Below, piece by piece: positions 10,357-28,264 of a stretch of DNA of 43,496 bases. Positions within the stretch are counted from its first letter, which is position 1; the number at the start of each line of letters is the position of its first letter. The notes under the pieces were generated by a model. It was not told the origin of the DNA and made no database searches. It saw only the letters and a list, made by a program, of their open reading frames with translations. The position numbers and the translations under genes are program-made. Origin of the DNA: a virus (Duplodnaviria; Heunggongvirae; Uroviricota; Caudoviricetes); the IMG/VR virus record IMGVR_UViG_2718218360_000017; one strand, written 5' to 3'.

Positions 10357-11985
10357 TCAGGACCGCATACTGACTTTCCGCCTTCCATAAATCACGGCGC
10401 TGCCGGCTGATTTTCTCATTCGCACCGCTGTGTTTTTCCAGCGTCCTGAGCTCAGCTTCAAGGGCAAGCAGGCTTCTCTTGCCTGCTCCTCTTCCCTCTC
10501 CCCGGCAGAGCGCGTTTTCGGTGATGTATGCTTTTTACCTGTCAGCTCTTCAGCCAGACGGCTGACGGCTTCCTGCTGCCCTGGACCTTTGCTGACGCCT
10601 GTTGCACGCGAGCGGTTGATGTACCCCATTTCCCCCTGGCGTATACGCGCATCCCGTTCCGCAATGGATTTTCTCAGCGCCAGTTCATCGCGTTTTGTTT
10701 TCTCAATAAATACGCGGTTCTCTTCTGCCAGTTCACCAAACAACGCACCAACGCCGGGCACATTCTTTGTCGTTTCCCAGGCTGACTGAATAAATTCAGC
10801 CAGCGCCAGATCCCCCTGCACAAGCAGCAGCTTCACTTGTTCAACGGTTCCGGCCACCACGTCAGTGATCAGACTGAGTGCCCCCAGTGTATGATCACCT
10901 ATCCATGCCCATGCGTCAGAAGTCCAGGTTTTAACATCGTCCCAGATTTTTTCCACCGGCGTGGCCGCTTTATCAAGTTGCTCCAGACGTGCATTCATGA
11001 CATCCGCAAACAGGGACATCGCCTCCGTCACCGCAGCCTGTTTACCTTTCGTGCGCTCAAGCTCATCAATATGGCGTAACTGGGAAACGCTCAGGAAGTT
11101 ATACTGCTGATTCAGGGAGGCCAGCGCCTTCACCGGATCTGCTGCAATCCCTTCAAAGGCTTTTTCCACCTTCCCGGCATCGTCCCCCACCGTCTGCAGC
11201 CATCTCTGAGAGGTTTCCCCCATGATCCGTAGCTGCCCGGCGGTATATTTCCCGCTTTCTGCCAGACGGGCCAGATTTTCTGCCGCCTGTCTGATACCAC
11301 CACCGGCTTCATCGCTGATCACCCCGGCCATTTTCCACAATTCTGCCGTTGTGGTGGCAGCCGCCCCTCCGGTCAGGATCAGTGAACGCAATAAGGCCCG
11401 ATCAGCCTGCTCTGCCTGCCAGGCGGCGGCAGCAAGCGCGGCCAGTACGGCAACCCCGCCACCTGCCGCCACACGGGCCACCGACATAAATCGTCCCAGC
11501 TCACCGGCATTCCGGGCATTTTCAGCCAGTGCATTTGCCGTATCTGACAGCGACTCCTCTGATGATTCAGAGGCATCCCTGATCCCGAGAAGTTCCTCCT
11601 TCAGCAGGGTAAGCAGGCTGAGCGGTCCACCGAATGAATCGCTGATCTGCCCCCCCTGCTGCAGCATGATAAGGAAGGGATTCTGACCACCGGCAAGCTG
11701 AGTGACAATATCCGTGAACTGTGCGGGCAGTGTGCGCATGGCAGCCTTATACTGTCCGACTGATATCCCGGCTTTTTGTGCAGCCAGCGCCTGTCGGCTC
11801 AGACTCTGCTCAGCAGCATCAGCCTGTTTTCTGAAAGACTGACTGACTTTCCCGGACATCAAATCAGCAAGCGCACTGGTTTCACCCAGCTCTTTTTTTA
11901 CCCGCGCTGCCTCTTCAGAAAAACGGGCAGAATCCAGTGTCAGCACGGCTGTCAGATCGGCAAAATTACCTGCCATCGTGGTCAC
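10357..11985 (-). CDS. H: Tail tape measure protein H, N-terminal portion; frame lost after ..TRSAGE near 10485
   Basis: 542-aa ORF with lambda gpH N-terminal/central homology (..QSLSRQALAAQKAGISVGQYKAAMR..); the last ~50 codons look like out-of-frame read-through. Confidence 0.85.
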   Translation of the reverse strand: MTTMAGNFADLTAVLTLDSARFSEEAARVKKELGETSALADLMSGKVSQSFRKQADAAEQSLSRQALAAQKAGISVGQYKAAMRTLPAQFTDIVTQLAGGQNPFLIMLQQGGQISDSFGGPLSLLTLLKEELLGIRDASESSEESLSDTANALAENARNAGELGRFMSVARVAAGGGVAVLAALAAAAWQAEQADRALLRSLILTGGAAATTTAELWKMAGVISDEAGGGIRQAAENLARLAESGKYTAGQLRIMGETSQRWLQTVGDDAGKVEKAFEGIAADPVKALASLNQQYNFLSVSQLRHIDELERTKGKQAAVTEAMSLFADVMNARLEQLDKAATPVEKIWDDVKTWTSDAWAWIGDHTLGALSLITDVVAGTVEQVKLLLVQGDLALAEFIQSAWETTKNVPGVGALFGELAEENRVFIEKTKRDELALRKSIAERDARIRQGEMGYINRSRATGVSKGPGQQEAVSRLAEELTGKKHTSPKTRSAGEREEEQAREACLPLKLSSGRWKNTAVRMRKSAGSAVIYGRRKVSMRS

Positions 11986-14591: not shown

Positions 14592-14869
14592 TCCTGTTCG
14601 ACAAAAATCCGGGGTTTACCGTTGTACGTGTCATAACGGGTCACCGTCAGTGTGCGCCCCGCAAACACAACAACATCATGACGGGCCGGACGGTACCGGG
14701 CTGAAAACACCACCAGTGACAACTGGCTGCCCGAAAGCGCCCCCATCTCCGCGGACTCTTCCTCCGGCATCACGTCGTACACGACGCCGTTAATCTCCGC
14801 CTGTTTGCCCATCACCCGAACGGTCGCCACGTCCATCCGGCAACACATTCGCGTAAACAGATCAGACAT
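14588..14869 (-). CDS. Head-tail connector protein (FII-position)
   Basis: 93-aa ORF at the gene-order position of lambda FII with similar size; weak similarity only. Confidence 0.45.
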   Translation of the reverse strand: MSDLFTRMCCRMDVATVRVMGKQAEINGVVYDVMPEEESAEMGALSGSQLSLVVFSARYRPARHDVVVFAGRTLTVTRYDTYNGKPRIFVEQE

Positions 14870-15188
14870 TGATTTTTACCGCCACAGTGGCGCTGTTTGC
14901 AGGGGCATTTTCCCAGGCTACCCCCGCTGCCACCGCACCGTCTGCAGCCAGCTGCACAACCCCGTCCTTCAGATAAACCACCGCGCCGGACTGAATGTCG
15001 TCAGCAGACTGTTTGGGCAGCAGGAACACGCCTTCGGCAAAACCGTCACCGGCCTCACCGGCAGGAATATCGGTAATGGCCACGGCCACCATACTGCCGA
15101 CCACCACCGCAGCACCGCTCAGGATGGTCTGATCTCCGGCATTCACCAGTTCAATGGTGGTACCGTCCTGTACAAAATTTTTCGCCAT
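14862..15188 (-). CDS. Small head-associated protein (possible decoration/DUF2190-like), directly downstream of the capsid gene
   Basis: 108 aa, Gly/Ala/Val-rich; assignment by position only. Confidence 0.4.
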   Translation of the reverse strand: MAKNFVQDGTTIELVNAGDQTILSGAAVVVGSMVAVAITDIPAGEAGDGFAEGVFLLPKQSADDIQSGAVVYLKDGVVQLAADGAVAAGVAWENAPANSATVAVKINV

Positions 15189-21964: not shown

Positions 21965-22432
21965 TTAGTTCAGGCACTGAGTGCGGATATAGTCCTGTGC
22001 CCCTTCCAGCTGCTTCTGCATTGTCATCAACCGTTCTCTGAGGATGAAATAATCCCGTTCAGCGGTGTCTGCCAGTCGGGGGCCGGTTGCATTATCCACG
22101 CCGGAGGTGCCGGTGGCTTCACGCACGGTACCGGAGCAGATGGCGTTGATCCGCAGGCGCTTACGACCAGCGGCAACATCAGCGCGCAGAGTTTCATTTT
22201 CAGCTCTCGCATCGGCTAATTCCCTCGAGTATCTGGCATCAAGTGCAGCAACATCACGCTGGCGCTGCTGCATATCAGTAATGGTTGCATTTGCCAGCTC
22301 CAGCTCACTGACTTTTTTATCGCGCTGCTCTTTGTAGGTTATGGCGTTATCACGGTAATGATTCAGCCCCAGACTAAGCGCACCACAGGCCACCAGCAGG
22401 GCAATGATGACCACGCACAGTACGCGGTTCAT
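21965..22432 (-). CDS. Rz: Rz i-spanin
   Basis: MNRVLCVVIIALLVACGALSLGLNHYRDNAITYKEQRDKK.. collinear with lambda Rz. Confidence 0.9.
   Translation of the reverse strand: MNRVLCVVIIALLVACGALSLGLNHYRDNAITYKEQRDKKVSELELANATITDMQQRQRDVAALDARYSRELADARAENETLRADVAAGRKRLRINAICSGTVREATGTSGVDNATGPRLADTAERDYFILRERLMTMQKQLEGAQDYIRTQCLN
22027..22212 (-). CDS. Rz1: Rz1 o-spanin lipoprotein, embedded in the +1 frame of Rz
   Basis: ..LPLVVSACGS..CVKPPAPPAWIMQPAPDWQTPLNGIIS.. matches lambda Rz1. Confidence 0.85.
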   Translation of the reverse strand: MRELKMKLCALMLPLVVSACGSTPSAPVPCVKPPAPPAWIMQPAPDWQTPLNGIISSSENG

Positions 22433-22433
22433 T

Positions 22434-22535
22434 TCACCACCAGCGTATCTGACCAATGAAATAACCGGAAGCCATAATCACAAACACCAGCCAGATAAGG
22501 ATGAACTTCCAGGTGGATAATTTTTCAGCCATCAT
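22434..22535 (-). CDS. Candidate 33-aa single-pass membrane peptide between endolysin and Rz
   Basis: MMAEKLSTWKFILIWLVFVIMASGYFIGQIRWW; GGGAG Shine-Dalgarno about 7 nt upstream; its stop overlaps the Rz start (ATGA). Confidence 0.35.
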   Translation of the reverse strand: MMAEKLSTWKFILIWLVFVIMASGYFIGQIRWW

Positions 22536-22607
22536 TCGAATCTCCCGAATCAGTTTGCTAAAATCAAACACACTTTCTCCTTTGACTTTTCCGGAGTCAG
22601 GAAACAC

Positions 22608-22640
22608 AAAACCCCGCTTGCGGCCAACAAACGGGGTTTT
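22608..22640. terminator. Hairpin between endolysin and Rz (terminator-like, either orientation)
   Basis: aaaaccccgcttgcggccaacaaacggggtttt. Confidence 0.4.
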
Positions 22641-22729
22641 ACTTTTATTCACTTAGTTTTTGCCAGTTCGCAGGATTTCGTGTTATCCGCCCGTGTGAGC
22701 AAACCGCATTTTTCAGCAAAATATTCTGC

Positions 22730-23263
22730 TTATCTGTCAATTCCCCAGCACGCCAGCGCGCTCTCCTGGTCACGCCGTGAGACCTGACCGTAGCAGTTGT
22801 TTGAGCGAATACGGCAGTCTCTGCCGCCGTCCTTAATCCACCAGCGAATCGCTTCGCAGGCACCTTTTCGATCACCTGCATTAATTCGTCTGTAAAACGT
22901 CGACGGGAAACACTTACCGGGACCAATGTTGTACGGACAGAATGACGCGATCCCCGCTTTCTGGGGTTCGGTCAGCGGCACTTTGATGTTTTTCTCCACC
23001 CATGCCAGCGCCTTATCCCGTTCGATAGCGTTAACCCGGTCGCATTTTTCCTTCGACAGCTTCATGCCAGGAATCACAGGCTTACCATCCACCATGATGG
23101 CGCCTCGGCAGATGGTCCAGATACCCGCACCATCACGGTATGCCGTGGTGTGGTTACCTTCCTTTTCATCCAGAAACTGGTCGAGGATTTCAGGCGCAGA
23201 AGCACCTGCGGCAATCAGCGCCAGAACGGCAGCCGATAAACCATAGCGGAGTTTCCTGCTCAT
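22730..23263 (-). CDS. R: SAR-type endolysin (lysozyme, GH24-like)
   Basis: N-terminal Gly/Ala-rich hydrophobic signal-anchor segment (YGLSAAVLALIAAGASA) followed by a lysozyme-like domain. Confidence 0.85.
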   Translation of the reverse strand: MSRKLRYGLSAAVLALIAAGASAPEILDQFLDEKEGNHTTAYRDGAGIWTICRGAIMVDGKPVIPGMKLSKEKCDRVNAIERDKALAWVEKNIKVPLTEPQKAGIASFCPYNIGPGKCFPSTFYRRINAGDRKGACEAIRWWIKDGGRDCRIRSNNCYGQVSRRDQESALACWGIDR

Positions 23264-23267
23264 CAGC

Positions 23268-23483
23268 TTACTCTCCCCGTGCCGCCTTACGCCTGTCCTC
23301 TCTGATTTTGAAATACAGGTTCGTCAGGTACGTCAGCAGACCAAACAGCAGACTCCCCAGCACGCCTATTGCCGCCCACTGAGACGGGGAAACCCTGTCC
23401 AGCAACTGCAGGAACCAGTAGCCCGTTCCCACCGCTGACGTGGTGTATGACACACCTGTTGTGATTTTTTCCATCTGGTTCAT
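23268..23483 (-). CDS. S: S21-type pinholin with dual start (Met1/Met4)
   Basis: [10 protein letters not shown]...[51 protein letters not shown], near-identical in pattern to phage 21 S; real start is internal to track ORF 23268..23558. Confidence 0.85.
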
Positions 23484-23560: not shown

Positions 23561-23803
23561 TTACATCATCATGTCGCTGTCCGGTGTGGGGTCACCGCTA
23601 TCTGAAGCACTCCCCTCACCCGCGATGCCTTCCGGCTCCGGAGCTGCCGGTGCGCCCAGCAGTTCATCCAGAATGGCATCCACTTCTGCATCAAGACGCG
23701 CTTCCAGGTTATGGCGAAGTTTCTGTTTCAGTGCGCTCCGGACTTCTTCAGAGCGCAGGACTTCCTTCACTGCTTCAGCAGTGACCAGGGATGTAATTTC
23801 TGA
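23561..23803 (-). CDS. Acidic ~80-aa protein of unknown function upstream of the holin
   Basis: Internal start [23 protein letters not shown].. of track ORF 23561..23980; the track ORF N-terminus looks like non-coding read-through. Confidence 0.4.
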
Positions 23804-23836
23804 CATGGGATTTTCTCGTCGAAAGGTGTGATTAAG

Positions 23837-24026
23837 AAAGTTGCCGCTAAATGAGCGGCTCTTCGGGTTTGCTTCCGGCTGACTGACTGGCGCTGATTTT
23901 CTCAGCGGCCCTTTTGTCAATCTGTCTGCGCCAGAAGTCACGCATGGCCCTGTACCCACCCGAAAGGAGATACAGCACACAGACCACCGTACAGAAGTAC
24001 AGCATTAACTGGTTCAGAAATGTCAT
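23837..24026 (-). CDS. Candidate 59-aa membrane protein (MTFLNQLMLYFCTVVCVLYLLSGGYRAMRDFWRRQIDKRAAEKISASQSAGSKPEEPLI)
   Basis: Hand translation; ggaaag Shine-Dalgarno 6 nt upstream; hydrophobic N-terminal helix; below the ORF-track size cut-off. Confidence 0.35.
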
Positions 24027-24163: not shown

Positions 24164-26110
24164 TCATGCCGCAGTGTCTGTGCTGTTCACTTCCACCGCA
24201 ATGCTGTCTATCAGTACCGGGTAAGTCGCACCTCTGGTAATGTCTGTCACATGCAGTTTATCCGCCGCAAAGGCACTGACCGGTGACTGCGTCAGCGTGA
24301 ACGGTGTACCATCCTGACCATCAATAACCGGCGTCACCTGAAGGCTGTTATTCCCGGCAAAGCGGAAAGCCAGCGCATGCCATTCGTTATCAAATGCGCC
24401 AAAGCTTCCCAGTTTCAGGTTGTTTGTCGCCACTTTCGCATTGTGGTACATCACATTCAGGTCTTTTGCATCTGTCTGGATGTAGAACGCTGCCAGCAGG
24501 TTATTCCCCCCGTCTCCGGTCAGGGCAACGCCCTGTGGCAGTGAAGATACCGGCCAGTAAAACGCCATAACATACTGGTTCGCAGCCAGCACTCCCGAAA
24601 CCTTAAAGCGGCAGCGAATCTGCCCCCCTTTCTGTAACAGAGCCGCACCGTTGCCCGCGGCGTACTCCAGCACCCAGCTGCTTTTACCGGCTTCCTTGGT
24701 CAGCTTCACTGCCTTACCTCCGGTTCCCTCCGCATCGCTGACCACTTCTGCCCTGCCGCCACTGGCTGACCATCCCTGTACTTTCAGGCTTCCCTCTGAC
24801 TCGCTGGCAAGGTAAGAGAGCAGTGTTGTGACGCCTGTGGCTTCTGCACCGGAAGGCGATGACGGGCGCACCTCTGATACTGTCGATGATGCCCCCGCGT
24901 TTAGCGCCACTCTTCCCGCATGGCGCAAAATCGCCGTTGCCAGACGGTCGGAAATAATCCCACGGCGTGCCCAGGCGCTGAAATGGCTCGCCCTGTCCTG
25001 TGACGTCCAGGTGGCTGAGCTGTCACGCCATTTCGAACCGTAATATCCGATACCCGGAATGTCCGGGTCTTCTTCCGGTTTGTTCGTCGGCACATTCACC
25101 CCGTTCTCATCCGTCATGAACGGTACGAAATGGATATTCTTTTCCGTTTTGTTTTTGTAGCTGCCGTACACCGTCTGGTACGAGGATTCGTTCTTCTGCT
25201 TCCAGAAATACGTCGTGTCCCCGCATATCCAGGGAACACCGTCAGCAGAGCCACCGACGCACTGACCTGCCATATCCGCCAGGTCTGCACGGAATTTATC
25301 AACCTGCGCACCAAACTGTGCTGCGTGATTTGCCGGCGTACCGCCAAAATCAAATTCCCCCTGCATCCACACCACGGCAAACAGCACATTTTTCGGATTC
25401 TTCTTCAGTGCTGCTTTTGTTCGACCGATAAGGTCCTTATACAGCGGCTTGTCCACACCCCAGCGGGTTGAATTCTCCGAGGCACCACTCGCGTCACTGT
25501 ATGTGCCATCAGCTCCGGTGGTGAACGCTGAACCACCACGACAGCACGGAACCAGCAGAATGCCCGCATTCGCCGGTATAAACGGCAGCAGTTTTTTGGC
25601 GATATGCAGCCCCTGCCCCACGGTTCCGTACTGCCCCTTTGACAGGTCCGCTTTCGGATGGTTAAGGCGGCTCATGTCCTGCACATCATGCAGACAATGG
25701 TCCGCCGGAATGATGTCGTTATATTTACAGGCGACACCGCCCGGTGTCACCGTACTGCGACGCGCCAGCTGCTTAATGCGCGGGTCCGGACGGTCATATG
25801 TCTCCGGCAGCGGAAGGCCTTCACCATACGACATGCCGTTTGACTGCCCTGCCAGAACCACAACAAAGTAATACCCGGGGTCGCTGGTGGCGCTGATTAC
25901 TGCACCTTCTCCACCTGTCGGCTTCACCACAACAGGTGTGCTCACATCACCTTCTGCGACAATCGCCTGAATAAGTGCTGCGCCATCATCCGTATACGAA
26001 GAAAACGGCCCACCATATGGTTGCCATCCTTCACGAATTTTTTGCGCAAGTGCATCAGCAAGGTCTGACGGCGACGCCGCCCTGACAACATCATAATGTT
26101 TAAATGTCAT
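24164..26110 (-). CDS. nanS-p: Prophage sialate 9-O-acetylesterase (NanS-p-like, SGNH/SASA family)
   Basis: 648 aa; GQSN catalytic motif (VVLAGQSNGMSYGEG); position between Q and the lysis genes. Confidence 0.8.
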   Translation of the reverse strand: MTFKHYDVVRAASPSDLADALAQKIREGWQPYGGPFSSYTDDGAALIQAIVAEGDVSTPVVVKPTGGEGAVISATSDPGYYFVVVLAGQSNGMSYGEGLPLPETYDRPDPRIKQLARRSTVTPGGVACKYNDIIPADHCLHDVQDMSRLNHPKADLSKGQYGTVGQGLHIAKKLLPFIPANAGILLVPCCRGGSAFTTGADGTYSDASGASENSTRWGVDKPLYKDLIGRTKAALKKNPKNVLFAVVWMQGEFDFGGTPANHAAQFGAQVDKFRADLADMAGQCVGGSADGVPWICGDTTYFWKQKNESSYQTVYGSYKNKTEKNIHFVPFMTDENGVNVPTNKPEEDPDIPGIGYYGSKWRDSSATWTSQDRASHFSAWARRGIISDRLATAILRHAGRVALNAGASSTVSEVRPSSPSGAEATGVTTLLSYLASESEGSLKVQGWSASGGRAEVVSDAEGTGGKAVKLTKEAGKSSWVLEYAAGNGAALLQKGGQIRCRFKVSGVLAANQYVMAFYWPVSSLPQGVALTGDGGNNLLAAFYIQTDAKDLNVMYHNAKVATNNLKLGSFGAFDNEWHALAFRFAGNNSLQVTPVIDGQDGTPFTLTQSPVSAFAADKLHVTDITRGATYPVLIDSIAVEVNSTDTAA

Positions 26111-26589
26111 TATTCCTCCCGGCCGGGATAGTGTATTAAATCAGATATGGAGTGGGCTGTAGTCCGGAAGCCTGAATGACACACGGGGACTACAGCCCAA
26201 GAAATGAAAAAAGGCCACGCAGTTGCGCAGCCTGATAAACCCTGGTTAAAATCCACACGATAACAACACAACAATATCAGTATCTCATGCTATTGCCCGA
26301 ACCCATTCGGGCATTTTTTACCCATAAAAAATGCCCCTCCGGAGAGGGGCATTTTTGCATGCACATTCTTTTTCTTGCATGGTGCCGGGTGCCTCCCGGT
26401 GAATTCAGTATCAGCACCTGAATCCGCGATTACCCCATATACCTGGTTGCTGATTGCCCCTCCGCACAGGGGGATTCACCATGCCAGTTTCTTTTAACAA
26501 ACTCCCCGCAAACCAGACAACAGTCAACCGCCTGAATTGTGAGACATTTAAAAAAAAGGCCCGCAAAAGCGAGCCAGGGAAAATAAGTG

Positions 26590-26665
26590 TGGCGCGTTGT
26601 ACTGGATTCGAACCAGCGACCTGGCGATTATGCGTCGCTCGCTCTCACCACTGAGCTAAAGGGCC
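26590..26665 (-). tRNA. tRNA-like sequence with CAU anticodon (Ile2/Met-like); acceptor stem does not pair by eye, so possibly a pseudogene/remnant
   Basis: Minus strand GGCCCTTTAGCTCAGTGGTGAGAGCGAGCGACGCATAATCGCCAGGTCGCTGGTTCGAATCCAGTACAACGCGCCA: canonical D-arm, CAU anticodon loop and GGTTCGAATCC T-arm, but the 3' strand ACAACGC is not complementary to the 5' GGCCCTT. Confidence 0.5.
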
Positions 26666-26697
26666 GGGAGCAGAATAATAACTGTCCGTAATTAATT

Positions 26698-26728
26698 CCG
26701 AAATAAAAAACCCGCTCAGTGGCGGGTT
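26698..26728 (-). terminator. Intrinsic terminator downstream of the lipoprotein moron; near-copy of tR'
   Basis: Minus strand aacccgccactgagcgggtt followed by ttttttattt. Confidence 0.6.
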
Positions 26729-26805
26729 GCTATCACAGCTATATATTTACTTATTATGCCGTTACTAACATTTATCTTCGGCATATAATCGAAAACAAGG
26801 TTTGC

Positions 26806-27231
26806 TTAAAACTCTGCTTTCATTTTATCCGGGAATTTTTTATTTGCAGCATAATAACTACCAAGTATATAAGCGTTCATTTGCTGCTCTACATCAACCC
26901 GACATGCAGCACTAGAACAAGCACCACTGATAAGCCCAAAAGAACTCCCTTTAGCAGAGAGATCAGCTTTAATTTCCTCTACAGTGTTTTTCCCCATAGC
27001 AACTACACACCCTGTAACAATATATCTAGCCTTCACATCATCCATGCTAAGGATAGTGGTTTTCGCAATTTTGCTGTATCCATCATTTTTATAAACATCC
27101 ATGGCAAACGCACGGCAATCTGTATAATACGGACTTGCTTTAACTTGCGAATACTCAGGTAATTTCATACCTGCACAACCAACTAAACAAAAACCTATCG
27201 CTGCTATTAATACCTTTTTCATTACACTCAT
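26806..27231 (-). CDS. Cys-rich lipoprotein of unknown function (moron)
   Basis: Signal peptide with lipobox MKKVLIAAIGFCLVGC; AT-rich; own promoter-like AT-rich leader; bracketed by two terminators. Confidence 0.7.
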   Translation of the reverse strand: MSVMKKVLIAAIGFCLVGCAGMKLPEYSQVKASPYYTDCRAFAMDVYKNDGYSKIAKTTILSMDDVKARYIVTGCVVAMGKNTVEEIKADLSAKGSSFGLISGACSSAACRVDVEQQMNAYILGSYYAANKKFPDKMKAEF

Positions 27232-27378
27232 AACCTAGAAGCATCATTGAAACTAATTTATTAAATATTCATCGAGTTTCTGGAATACAGACGTTACCCA
27301 TCTCTCCAAAATCTAAAAGATAATAAGAAAAAATGTTTAACGTACCAATCCATTTCATAGTTTCATGAGACATCAGGC

Positions 27379-27406
27379 ACAAAAAAACCCGCTCAGCGGC
27401 GGGTTC
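27379..27406 (-). terminator. tR' late terminator downstream of pR'
   Basis: Minus strand aacccgccgctgagcgggtt followed by tttttttg, about 40 nt downstream of the predicted late promoter. Confidence 0.6.
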
Positions 27407-27450
27407 TTAAATCTTATCAACGGTAGACATACAAAGCCCATCGTTGGGAA

Positions 27451-27479
27451 AATCTTATCCATATTTTTTGAAAAATGCA
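27451..27479 (-). promoter_or_regulatory. Candidate late promoter pR' / qut region
   Basis: -35 TTGCAT, 17-nt spacer, -10 TAAGAT on the minus strand, immediately downstream of Q. Confidence 0.45.
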
Positions 27480-27511
27480 AGCATCATGTCGCCATCTTCG
27501 GCGAAAATCAT

Positions 27512-28264
27512 TTATCTTGTCACTTTTCTCAATTGTGTCTCTGCATATGCTTCTTCCTGCCAGCACTTTGTAACCAGTTTATCAATGATATCTGCATATC
27601 CTTTGTACCACTGATAATCCGTCAGGGCAGGTACCAGCTTCTGGACATGATGCCGCGCCAGTGTGGTTGGTAAACGGCTAAACCGGTTACCATTGCAACG
27701 CCCACAAATCTTATAAACAGGCGTACCATGAAGCCGGGTTCTTTTTTCATCCAGGACAATACCTTTACCCTTACACCCTCTGCACGCTGTGCTGACTTCT
27801 CCCTTACCATGACAATGCTGACATAGTTCCTTCACCCACTCTTCCTTGATAACAGATTCCCCGCTTCTGGAGTGTTTCACCACCTCGCGCAATACATTAT
27901 GAAATCCAGTACCAGCACAATGCTCACAGCGAGCCTTACTTGCCGCAGACCTGGAATAATCAGCAAAGGCAAAATTCACAAGGTAAGGGATGATCTGTAA
28001 CCGGGTTTCTTCACTCAATTTATTCAATGTCGGGTTATCCAGTGCCATCGCGTAATTGAGCAGACCTTCAATCGCAAACTGAGGATCCTGAACACCAACT
28101 TTTGCCAGGAATAAGGCAAAACCCAGTGGTGCTTTCGACTGCACCATCCCCTGCGCAGCAATTACATCCGTAATTGTTAAACCACCAGAGCCTGTCGCCG
28201 GTGCGTCATCACTCAGTTTTGGAGATTTTGGGGAGTAATATTTTGGTAAGGCTTCAAGGTTCAT
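27512..28264 (-). CDS. Q: Late antiterminator Q
   Basis: 250 aa with repeated Cys motifs (CEHCAGTG, CQHCHGKG, CRGCKGKG, CGRCNG); directly upstream of pR'/tR'. Confidence 0.8.
   Translation of the reverse strand: MNLEALPKYYSPKSPKLSDDAPATGSGGLTITDVIAAQGMVQSKAPLGFALFLAKVGVQDPQFAIEGLLNYAMALDNPTLNKLSEETRLQIIPYLVNFAFADYSRSAASKARCEHCAGTGFHNVLREVVKHSRSGESVIKEEWVKELCQHCHGKGEVSTACRGCKGKGIVLDEKRTRLHGTPVYKICGRCNGNRFSRLPTTLARHHVQKLVPALTDYQWYKGYADIIDKLVTKCWQEEAYAETQLRKVTR

Follow-up and report, generated by a model that had tools for sequence, protein, structure and literature searches.

The nanS-p gene and its product

The DNA analysed here (the window, 43,496 nucleotides) belongs to a prophage of the EHEC host E. 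coli O111:H8. At 24164..26110 its minus strand carries nanS-p, a single 648-aa frame with an ATG start and a Shine-Dalgarno sequence (GGGAGG) 5 nt 5' of it. This is a real gene and not a chance open reading frame, and its three-domain product was recognised as a sialate O-acetylesterase from the frame itself, Pfam and PDB matches and its homologues. Pfam placed DUF1737 at residues 3-53, SASA (PF03629) at 84-278 and DUF6645 at 492-610, and the PDB matches covered the whole esterase domain (3PT5) and the C-terminal domain (6YP6); a search of NCBIfam with the product returned no meaningful family. The identical RefSeq protein (WP_065763510.1, 100%) is labelled only “DUF6645 domain-containing protein”. 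As this label draws on DUF6645 alone, the functional annotation can be improved.

The SASA/SGNH esterase domain (residues 74-396; 24923..25891, minus strand) was delimited by its alignment with the NanS/YjhS structure 3PT5 (E 7e-116) and by its catalytic blocks, while PF03629 scored 40 bits on the protein against a cutoff of 24.8. Following the block definitions for 3PT5 (PMC10792757) and the catalytic reference blocks (PMC9487903), block I is G88-Q-S90-N, block II R191GGSAF196, block III M249QGEFD254 and block V S375-H376-F-S. All four are intact, and they are invariant in an alignment of NanS-p with its 933W and phi24B homologues. The original prediction of a 648-aa SASA/SGNH protein with a GQSN motif is thus borne out, the motif lying at residues 88-91. 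Both the catalytic Ser and His are present in the alignment, and their codons were checked in the sequence (Ser90, 25841-25843; His376, 24983-24985; both minus strand). By homology, Ser90 would act as the nucleophile and His376 as the base, while the oxyanion hole, inverted as is usual in SASA enzymes, is probably formed by Gln89 and the QGE block.

At the C-terminus, a lectin-like jelly-roll domain (residues 426-643; 24182..24835, minus strand) was assigned from 6YP6 and from the Pfam match to DUF6645 (E 1.4e-73), and 215 of its 218 residues are identical to those of the PDB entry, itself named “NanS-p”. Four aromatic residues (Y513, Y518, Y543 and F614) are conserved and correspond to Y510, Y515, Y540 and F611 of vb_24B_21 from phi24B (PMC10462455). 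The domain is a putative carbohydrate-binding module that, going by its homologues, probably directs NanS-p to glycans. Upstream of it, linker 2 contains an RPSSPSG motif (residues 415-421) with a conserved SSP at residue 417.

At the other end of the protein, the DUF1737 domain (residues 3-53; 25952..26104, minus strand; PF08410, E 1.5e-11), here termed allele A, is the only strongly diverged part. Residues 19-85 are just 36% identical to 933W and phi24B, against 97-99% for the rest, although residues 1-18 and an EGWQPYG motif are conserved with phi24B. The anchoring loop reads ISTAGYGAEF in 933W and phi24B but SSYTDDGAAL here, so that the position of phi24B Tyr42 is occupied by Asp42; a tyrosine, Tyr39, is found in the same loop, and a second variant, allele C, likewise keeps a loop tyrosine. 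Linker 1 differs as well, with DVSTP in place of SISSP and a 3-residue insertion.

The late operon

Upstream of the gene lies that of a 250-aa antiterminator of the lambda-Q family (27512..28264, minus strand; PF03589, E 1.5e-51). This Q carries an inserted zinc-finger segment, and among PDB entries it matches the Q-lambda structures 7UBM (E 2.7e-37) and 4MO1 best. Alignment with lambda positions 44489-44729 revealed a candidate late promoter pR' (27437..27480, minus strand), consisting of a -35 element TTGCAT (27480-27475), a 17-nt spacer and a -10 element TAAGAT (27457-27452). After a further 6-nt spacer follows AACGATGGG (27445-27437), identical to the initial transcribed region of lambda pR', and the candidate retains CAACGATGGG at the lambda spacing. 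In lambda pR', the AACGAT conserved here is a pause element that depends on sigma70. A generic promoter scan missed this candidate, which was found through the direct comparison with lambda; its weak -35 element accounts for the omission.

Four terminators separate the candidate pR' from nanS-p. The first is a tR'-like intrinsic terminator (27381..27408, minus strand) recognised by RNA folding, with a 10-bp GC-rich hairpin and a U7 run (z = -3.6). On the late strand, a terminator scan placed another three terminator-like hairpins (26205..26728, minus strand), whose stems are 26728-26709, 26575-26558 and 26233-26212; across the region the scan returned 16 sites where 5.2 were expected. A duplicated hairpin was also read from the minus-strand sequence and RNA folds. 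The promoter scan found no sigma70-like promoter on the minus strand from 26111 to 27123.

Downstream of nanS-p lie genes for two small proteins, DUF1378 (23847..24026, minus strand; Pfam E 2e-39) and DUF826 (23561..23806, minus strand; Pfam E 1.5e-39 and a RefSeq CDS). DUF1378 is conserved in this position in Stx phages, with the same order in VT1-Sakai and phi24B, and DUF826 is a conserved neighbour too. The lysis cassette follows (21965..23483, minus strand; PF04971, PF00959, PF03245 and RefSeq annotation), and its Pfam-assigned members, all on the minus strand, are a P21-type (pin)holin (23268-23483), a lysozyme (endolysin; 22730-23263) and Rz (21965-22432). The list of open reading frames adds an Rz1-like lipoprotein embedded in Rz (22027-22212). 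The minus-strand order Q, nanS-p, holin matches the known position of NanS-p between Q and holin S. The late-operon placement first proposed, with the gene between pR' and the lysis genes, therefore holds, supported by the PF03589 match of Q, the lambda-like pR' and the pinholin, endolysin and Rz genes downstream. From this anatomy, we infer that nanS-p is under the control of Q.

It was also claimed that the gene sits at the position of stx in Stx phages, and here the maps disagree. Those of VT1-Sakai and 933W both place stxAB upstream of nanS-p, between it and Q/tR'/tRNAs, which rules out nanS-p as cargo in the stx position; it is instead the conserved neighbour just downstream of the stx slot. 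In the window, this slot (26111-27511) contains a 141-aa lipoprotein moron, a tRNA remnant, the sRNA STnc100 and the anti-sRNA AgvB, and no toxin genes. ARAGORN found no tRNA in the window, and the tRNA upstream of nanS-p is a remnant whose Rfam match covers only model positions 7-64 of 71.

Relatives, distribution and state of the prophage

The closest known system is NanS-p (H0032) of the Stx1 phage VT1-Sakai (an Sp15/CP-933V-type allele), which is 99% identical over 648 residues, including the allele-A DUF1737. VT1-Sakai shares with the window the downstream DUF1378, DUF826, S, R and Rz genes and the head module (the capsid genes are 99.8% identical), but it has stx1AB and a 933W/H-19B-type Q upstream, where the window has the 250-aa lambda-family Q and no toxin genes. 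The biochemically and structurally characterised members of the family are NanS-p of 933W (L0105/z1466, p42) and vb_24B_21/gp84 of phi24B. To these the window protein is 92% identical overall (esterase 97%, linker 2 100%, C-terminal domain 99%), with the same three-domain architecture, catalytic blocks, four aromatic sugar-site residues and location between Q and S. The three domains, together with 97-99% identity from residue 86 on, confirm the predicted NanS-p type. The phage backgrounds differ, phi24B being a T=9 podovirus (Traversvirus, gp69 MCP), whereas the window represents a lambda-like siphovirus type as judged from its genes. Chromosomal NanS (YjhS, 3PT5) aligns over about 320 residues with the same GQSN, RGGSAF, MQGEFD and SHFS motifs, and likewise works with Ser and His, lacking the block V Asp. 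It differs in being a single-domain protein of about 330 aa, without DUF1737 or the lectin-like domain, and in having a chromosomal gene, not one in the late operon of a prophage.

The same gene was found in 342 GenBank phage records, and 687 of 5426 complete E. coli genomes have full-length copies of nanS-p. The host chromosomes carry 9-13 nanS-p-matching places each. The head module of the prophage comprises a 723-aa ClpP-protease/MCP fusion and a lambda-family portal, and the tail is specified by lambda V/H/J genes; tblastn gave no match in the window to TerL, portal or MCP of phi24B. Compared with an intact copy, such as that in strain 2009C-3675, the tape-measure and gpJ genes contain single-base indels that shift the frame (at 6426-7825 and 10471). 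These may reflect either decay of the prophage or an error of assembly, and this prophage may not yield infectious virions.

Proposed role in sialic acid release

Taken together, these features describe an ordinary, already known prophage NanS-p with DUF1737, SASA/SGNH esterase and lectin-like C-terminal domains. [quoted passage not shown] The preferred substrate of NanS is 9-O-acetyl Neu5Ac (PMC9487903), and the NanS-p family acts on Neu5,9Ac2 and mucin O-glycans, with the prophage family members of EDL933 and O104:H4 all being active esterases that supported growth on Neu5,9Ac2 (review PMC8065619). Activity of this exact allele on Neu5,9Ac2 is to be expected from its near-identical relatives, and by homology both Neu5,9Ac2 and the O-acetylated sialoglycans of mucin would lose their 9-O-acetyl groups to it.

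Given that nanS-p has no evident promoter of its own and that four terminators follow pR', it would be made mainly on induction, when Q would let RNA polymerase read through these terminators into the late operon. In other strains, mitomycin C raises nanS-p expression by 1-2.4 logs (PMC10462455). On inspection, the N-terminus of the protein, MTFKHYDVVRAASPSDLADALAQKIREGW, lacks a hydrophobic signal segment, and an enzyme without a signal peptide would meet its substrate once the pinholin, endolysin and Rz had lysed the induced subpopulation. The freed Neu5Ac could then, according to the literature, be used by surviving sibling lysogens.

That nanS-p serves as host-adaptive cargo, the remaining part of the original prediction, has experimental support at the level of the family (PMC8065619), but is qualified by the finding that gp84, its homologue in phi24B, decorates the capsid, to which DUF1737 anchors it (2026 cryo-EM preprint, 10.64898/2026.04.10.717836). 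The gp84 DUF1737 hexamer was resolved on the capsid hexons of phi24B, and gp84 was among the most intense virion bands (preprint 10.64898/2026.04.10.717836). Its Tyr42 is an anchoring “tooth” in a loop inserted into the pore of the hexon, and both linkers have SSP-containing motifs as putative sites of autoprocessing. With gp84 on the capsid, nanS-p may belong to the structural genes of the phage and not be purely cargo, and its product may be part of the virus particle in addition to serving the host. In such a second role, DUF1737 may tether the enzyme to the capsid, from which cleavage at the conserved SSP linker may free it. The host-benefit model competes with, or needs combining with, the virion-decoration finding in phi24B.

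Two other explanations are far less probable. The esterase might de-acetylate a bacterial surface polysaccharide (LPS O-antigen or capsule) at adsorption, exposing a receptor, rather than act on mucin sialic acids. The review mentioned above raises this as an open possibility (PMC8065619), association with the phi24B virion is compatible with it, and in Mu-like contigs a cassette of esterase and C-terminal domains without DUF1737 adjoins baseplate, tail-fibre and invertase genes. Nevertheless, the full-length alignment with NanS and its substrate preference, the demonstrated activity of family members on Neu5,9Ac2 and mucin O-glycans, and the location of the phi24B protein on the capsid and not the tail all make a role in adsorption improbable. 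It is still harder to regard nanS-p as an inactive relic in a decaying prophage, without current function: the tail genes of the window are indeed frameshifted and the host has many redundant copies, but the frame runs its full length and has lost none of the catalytic or sugar-binding residues, the identical (100%) gene occurs in at least ten independent genomes, and the surrounding Q, pR' and lysis genes are intact.

DUF1737 alleles and head types

The more serious alternative to a sialic acid-releasing host enzyme is that the main role of NanS-p is structural, and that host benefit is a by-product. Allele-A DUF1737 would anchor the protein on the siphovirus capsid hexons, and the virion would expose its esterase and lectin domains, to adhere to mucus or penetrate it, before autoproteolysis sets them free. 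We regard this as possible, though clearly the less likely account. The structural and host-enzyme explanations are not mutually exclusive. The presence in the virion of phi24B gp84, so similar from residue 86 on, favours a structural role, as does the confinement of divergence to DUF1737 and linker 1 in a prophage whose head module differs completely from that of phi24B. Across 43 loci, DUF1737 type followed head-module type (ARI 0.55-0.62, NMI 0.65-0.68), while the esterase core and C-terminal domain did not (ARI about 0, NMI 0.1-0.2), even though they lie nearer to the head genes. Allele A was present in 11 of the 12 GenBank phage records with the capsid gene of the window; phages that combine this allele with the window-type head include VT1-Sakai, ASU11 (ON416862) and 1720a-02 (KF030445). 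The retained loop tyrosine (Y39) and conserved second SSP linker motif would be compatible with a structural role.

The pairing nonetheless has exceptions in both directions. Allele A also occurs in the Traversvirus Stx1-converting phage NC_004913, whose portal and MCP are 100% phi24B-type, window-type heads are accompanied by full-length allele C at two loci (L094 and L105), and allele C itself is paired with three different head types. Six loci with window-type heads have no nanS-p within 10 kb, and nanS-p was present in 0 of 25 more remote relatives of this head type whose upstream sequence was long enough. The association could also have a non-functional origin, in that gene conversion among the 9-13 nanS-p-matching places of each host chromosome could keep the conserved domains alike, while the divergent N-terminus stayed with its phage backbone. 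Moreover, the prophage already has a separate 108-aa head-decoration gene (phrog_122), the Tyr42 “tooth” position is Asp, and the SISSP of linker 1 is replaced by DVSTP.

A strict rule of one DUF1737 allele per capsid type was considered and rejected. It appeared to hold in the first 80 loci only, where allele A accompanied window-type heads in 11 of 11 cases and allele B phi24B-type heads in 4 of 4, but failed in the reverse scan from heads and on complete phages, being broken by L094, L105, NC_004913 and the three head types of allele C. We offer only tentatively the idea that allele-A DUF1737 is a capsid anchor adapted to the ClpP-MCP-fusion head, with NanS-p being an “anchor plus enzyme” whose anchor is swapped per virion type. 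Such swapping would pair allele A with the ClpP-MCP-fusion head and allele B with the T=9 Traversvirus head; lambda and HK97-like heads would have allele C, and Mu-like myoviruses an N-terminus other than DUF1737.

Conclusions

As a gene call, nanS-p carries little weight, because the family is described, an Stx1 phage of known sequence has a 99% identical allele and RefSeq contains the same protein (100%). A minor point is that an stx-negative prophage of an EHEC O111:H8 strain retains, around the toxin slot, the nanS-p/AgvB package for mucus adaptation. Comparing NanS-p domain by domain also begins the analysis asked for by the authors of the phi24B cryo-EM study. If the anchor is indeed exchanged to suit the virion, nanS-p would serve the phage itself, in virion structure or in its interaction with mucus, and would not be cargo for the bacterium.

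Identity and distribution of nanS-p

The nanS-p gene was recovered at 24164-26110 as an exact single ORF on the minus strand, encoding 648 aa from an ATG start with GGGAGG 5 bases upstream and carrying GQSN at residues 88-91; the original prediction of a 648-aa protein with GQSN at this place is confirmed. Pfam placed DUF1737 at residues 3-53 (E 1.5e-11), the SASA esterase domain at 84-278 (40.1 bits against a gathering score of 24.8) and DUF6645 at 492-610 (E 1.4e-73). In a PDB search, E. coli NanS/YjhS (3PT5) aligned end to end with residues 74-396 (E 7e-116), and 6YP6, a chain deposited as ‘NanS-p’, was identical to residues 426-643 at 215 of 218 positions. The active-site blocks of 3PT5 are GQSNA (Ser19), RGGSAF, MQGEFD and SHFS (His301) (PMC10792757), while the inverted oxyanion hole specific to SASA enzymes consists of the Gln beside the Ser and the QGE block (SGNH review, PMC9487903). 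Because all four blocks are present in the window protein (G88-Q-S90-N, R191GGSAF, M249QGEFD and S375-H376-F-S), with catalytic Ser90 and His376 in place in the alignment, the assignment as a SASA esterase stands. Further towards the C-terminus, the aromatic residues Y510, Y515, Y540 and F611 of the phi24B homologue vb_24B_21 (PMC10462455) are kept as Y513, Y518, Y543 and F614.

The comparison with characterised NanS-p proteins that the original prediction had proposed gave 99% overall identity to H0032 of the Stx1 phage VT1-Sakai and 92% to both 933W p42 and phi24B vb_24B_21. According to a review (PMC8065619), the product of 933W z1466 is an active Neu5,9Ac2 esterase, and every prophage allele of EDL933 and of one O104:H4 strain yielded an active enzyme that supported growth on Neu5,9Ac2 and removed acetyl groups from mucin O-glycans. 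The window gene has the catalytic domain, the catalytic residues, both accessory domains and the late-operon position that define NanS-p. It is therefore a rightly identified member of an already known family in its usual place, with esterase activity predicted from its sequence.

The family is widespread: 342 GenBank phage records, the majority of them Stx phages, contain nanS-p, and of 5426 complete E. coli genomes 687 have full-length copies. Several O111:H8 strains harbour a prophage that matches the window at 100% identity over the 7.3 kb surrounding the gene, and O111:H8 chromosomes carrying the exact window sequence have 9-13 nanS-p-matching places each. RefSeq names the product only ‘DUF6645 domain-containing protein’. 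The same esterase and C-terminal lectin-domain cassette also occurs in a 680-aa variant (locus L072, 9707-11749; also L073-L078), in which an unrelated N-terminus of ∼100 aa replaces DUF1737. In L072, a Mu-like myovirus contig, this variant directly follows the baseplate, tail-fibre, tail-fibre-assembly and serine-invertase genes.

Probable expression from the late operon

The predicted placement between Q/pR’ and the lysis genes was borne out by the gene order. Upstream lies the antiterminator Q (27512-28264; 250 aa), a lambda-Q family protein with best PDB matches to 7UBM (E 2.7e-37) and 4MO1, followed by a pR’-like promoter; downstream are, in order, DUF1378, DUF826, a P21-type holin, lysozyme and Rz. 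The pR’-like site, ∼30 bases past the Q stop codon, reads TTGCAT-17 nt-TAAGAT-tttccc-AACGATGGG. Alignment with lambda showed conservation of the -10 hexamer (TAAATT in lambda), the 6-nt spacing and the CAACGATGGG string. We take its AACGAT, from the lambda literature, to be the sigma70-dependent pause element where Q loads. Beyond this site lie a strong hairpin and its U7 run (27408-27381, z -3.6), and three further terminator-like hairpins precede nanS-p on the late strand (stems 26728-26709, 26575-26558 and 26233-26212); terminator-like sites are more numerous in this region than expected (16 against 5.2). A promoter scan of the late strand from 27123 to nanS-p found no sigma70-like promoter. 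The lambda-type Q, the pR’-like site, the terminators and this lack of a nearer promoter together support Q-dependent read-through as the probable mode of nanS-p expression, in agreement with published work in which mitomycin C raised the expression of nanS-p by 1-2.4 logs (PMC10462455).

Inspection of the NanS-p N-terminus revealed nothing resembling a signal peptide, and the pinholin/endolysin/Rz cassette follows the gene directly. Together these features suggest that the enzyme would reach its substrate through lysis of induced cells.

Contents of the toxin slot

The original prediction had also placed nanS-p at the position occupied by stx, which the maps of known Stx phages contradict. 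The order is Q, pR’, tR’, stx1AB, H0032 (nanS-p), DUF1378, DUF826, S, R in VT1-Sakai and Q, pR’, tRNAs, stx2AB, p42 (nanS-p), S, R in 933W. Since stxAB precedes nanS-p in both, nanS-p is a conserved gene downstream of the toxin slot rather than its occupant.

In the window the slot spans 26111-27511 and holds four things. One is a predicted 141-aa lipoprotein ORF (26806-27231, minus strand) with an LVGC lipobox, matching phrog_4748 (function unknown) and having no Pfam or NCBIfam match. The ORF lies in a low-GC patch, has a promoter-like site to itself (27348-27320) and is flanked by a pair of almost identical terminator hairpins (27405-27381 and 26728-26704; AACCCGCC(G/A)CTGAGCGGGTTTTTT). It looks like a classic moron in the stx slot. 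Another is a tRNA remnant (26600-26659, minus strand; Rfam tRNA, 37 bits, model positions 7-64 of 71) that is missing its acceptor stem and resembles the ileZ-type tRNA upstream of stx in 933W. ARAGORN found no tRNA over the whole window; RefSeq/PGAP calls a 71-nt tRNA-Met here. The STnc100 sRNA (26320-26513, minus strand; full-length RF02076 match, 144.7 bits, E 1.3e-33) directly abuts the anti-sRNA AgvB (26258-26319, plus strand; full-length RF02702 match, 96.5 bits against a gathering score of 56). The AgvB match includes the CACAACA GcvB-mimic seed and is situated shortly before nanS-p, in antisense orientation relative to the late operon. Anti-sRNAs have been placed ‘3’ of PR’ in the moron insertion site’, and AgvB advantages EHEC in bovine rectal mucus (Tree et al., PMC4104026).

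Prophage integrity and other cargo

The late region from Q to the capsid is intact. The tape-measure gene, which encodes 881 aa in the intact prophage copy of E. coli O111:H8 strain 2009C-3675, is split in the window by a 1-nt deletion at 10471 into ORFs of 542 and 291 aa. Compared with that copy, gpJ and tail-assembly genes also carry single-base indels (6426-6699; 7084-7252; 7815-7825). Either decay of the prophage or errors of assembly would account for these changes. The tail-fibre end carries a second cargo gene, the type III secretion effector nleG7 (1-651, plus strand; PF06416, E 4.8e-48; RefSeq nleG7). An HD-domain and HD_assoc gene encoding a dGTPase-like phosphohydrolase (40675-41901, plus strand; 408 aa) adjoins the integrase (42273-43496, minus strand) and could be anti-phage or nucleotide-depletion cargo.

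DUF1737 and the capsid

In phi24B, the NanS-p homologue gp84 gives one of the most intense virion bands; its DUF1737 (residues 2-57, with a Tyr42 ‘tooth’) forms a hexamer on the central hexons of a T=9 capsid, and once released, gp84 is cut, probably at linkers containing SSP (2026 preprint, 10.64898/2026.04.10.717836). The window and phi24B proteins are 94% identical over residues 1-18, 36% over 19-85, 97% over 86-400, 100% over 401-425 and 99% over 426-648, so that they diverge only in linker 1 and the distal half of DUF1737. Where phi24B has ISTAGYGAEF in its Tyr42 loop, the window has SSYTDDGAAL (Asp42, Tyr39), and linker-1 SISSP is DVSTP with a 3-residue insertion, whereas the linker-2 motif RPSSPSG is the same. 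The window virion is completely unlike that of phi24B, having a lambda-family portal, a ClpP-protease/major-capsid fusion and lambda-type V, H and J tail genes. Of the features of a phi24B-type decoration protein, DUF1737 is present and the partner capsid is absent. The window also encodes its own 108-aa head-decoration gene (14862-15188, minus strand; phrog_122, RefSeq DUF2190) adjoining the ClpP-protease/MCP fusion gene, and NanS-p, should it decorate the head at all, would therefore not be alone in doing so.

Among 80 IMG/VR loci found with the NanS-p protein and 80 found with the portal, we distinguished DUF1737 alleles A (window type), B (phi24B/933W type) and C (a third type), plus a rare A-like fourth type in L122, and head modules W (window), P (phi24B), X (true lambda gpA/gpB/gpC) and Y (HK97-like). 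Agreement was computed on the 43 loci (37 non-redundant) in which nanS-p is full-length and the head module could be identified. DUF1737 type agreed with head type (ARI 0.55-0.62, NMI 0.65-0.68); the esterase core (ARI about -0.1) and C-terminal domain (ARI about 0) showed little agreement (NMI 0.1-0.2 for each), though both lie physically nearer the head genes, and the window-type core and C-terminal domain were seen with all four head types. The allele-A segment also occurred in 11 of 12 complete GenBank phage records with a W capsid gene (97% identity or above). Functional coupling of DUF1737 to the capsid would predict such an association, which does not prove it.

Several loci depart from the pattern. 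Allele A accompanies a 100% phi24B-type portal and MCP in the Traversvirus ‘Stx1 converting phage’ NC_004913, and occurs in a known recombinant phage; full-length allele-C genes lie upstream of 98-100% W heads in two loci (L094, L105), and allele C was found with three head types. Six W-head loci had no nanS-p within 10 kb, nor was it present in any of 25 loci with a distant head relative (portal 78%) and enough upstream sequence. The association could also have a non-functional cause: gene conversion between the numerous nanS-p paralogues of a single genome could make the conserved domains uniform, while the divergent N-terminus would stay tied to its backbone. Given these exceptions and this alternative, attachment of NanS-p to the virion of the window phage is possible but rather doubtful.

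The domain-resolved association of DUF1737 allele with head module is the only mildly new element here, and we offer it as a hypothesis with known counterexamples. In NC_004913.3, the allele-A nanS-p (53056-55002) is 99% identical to that of the window, and the terminase, portal and capsid genes are 100% phi24B-type (locus L167, 1-9000). This natural chimera of an allele-A nanS-p and a phi24B-type head would be useful for asking whether allele A binds T=9 capsids.
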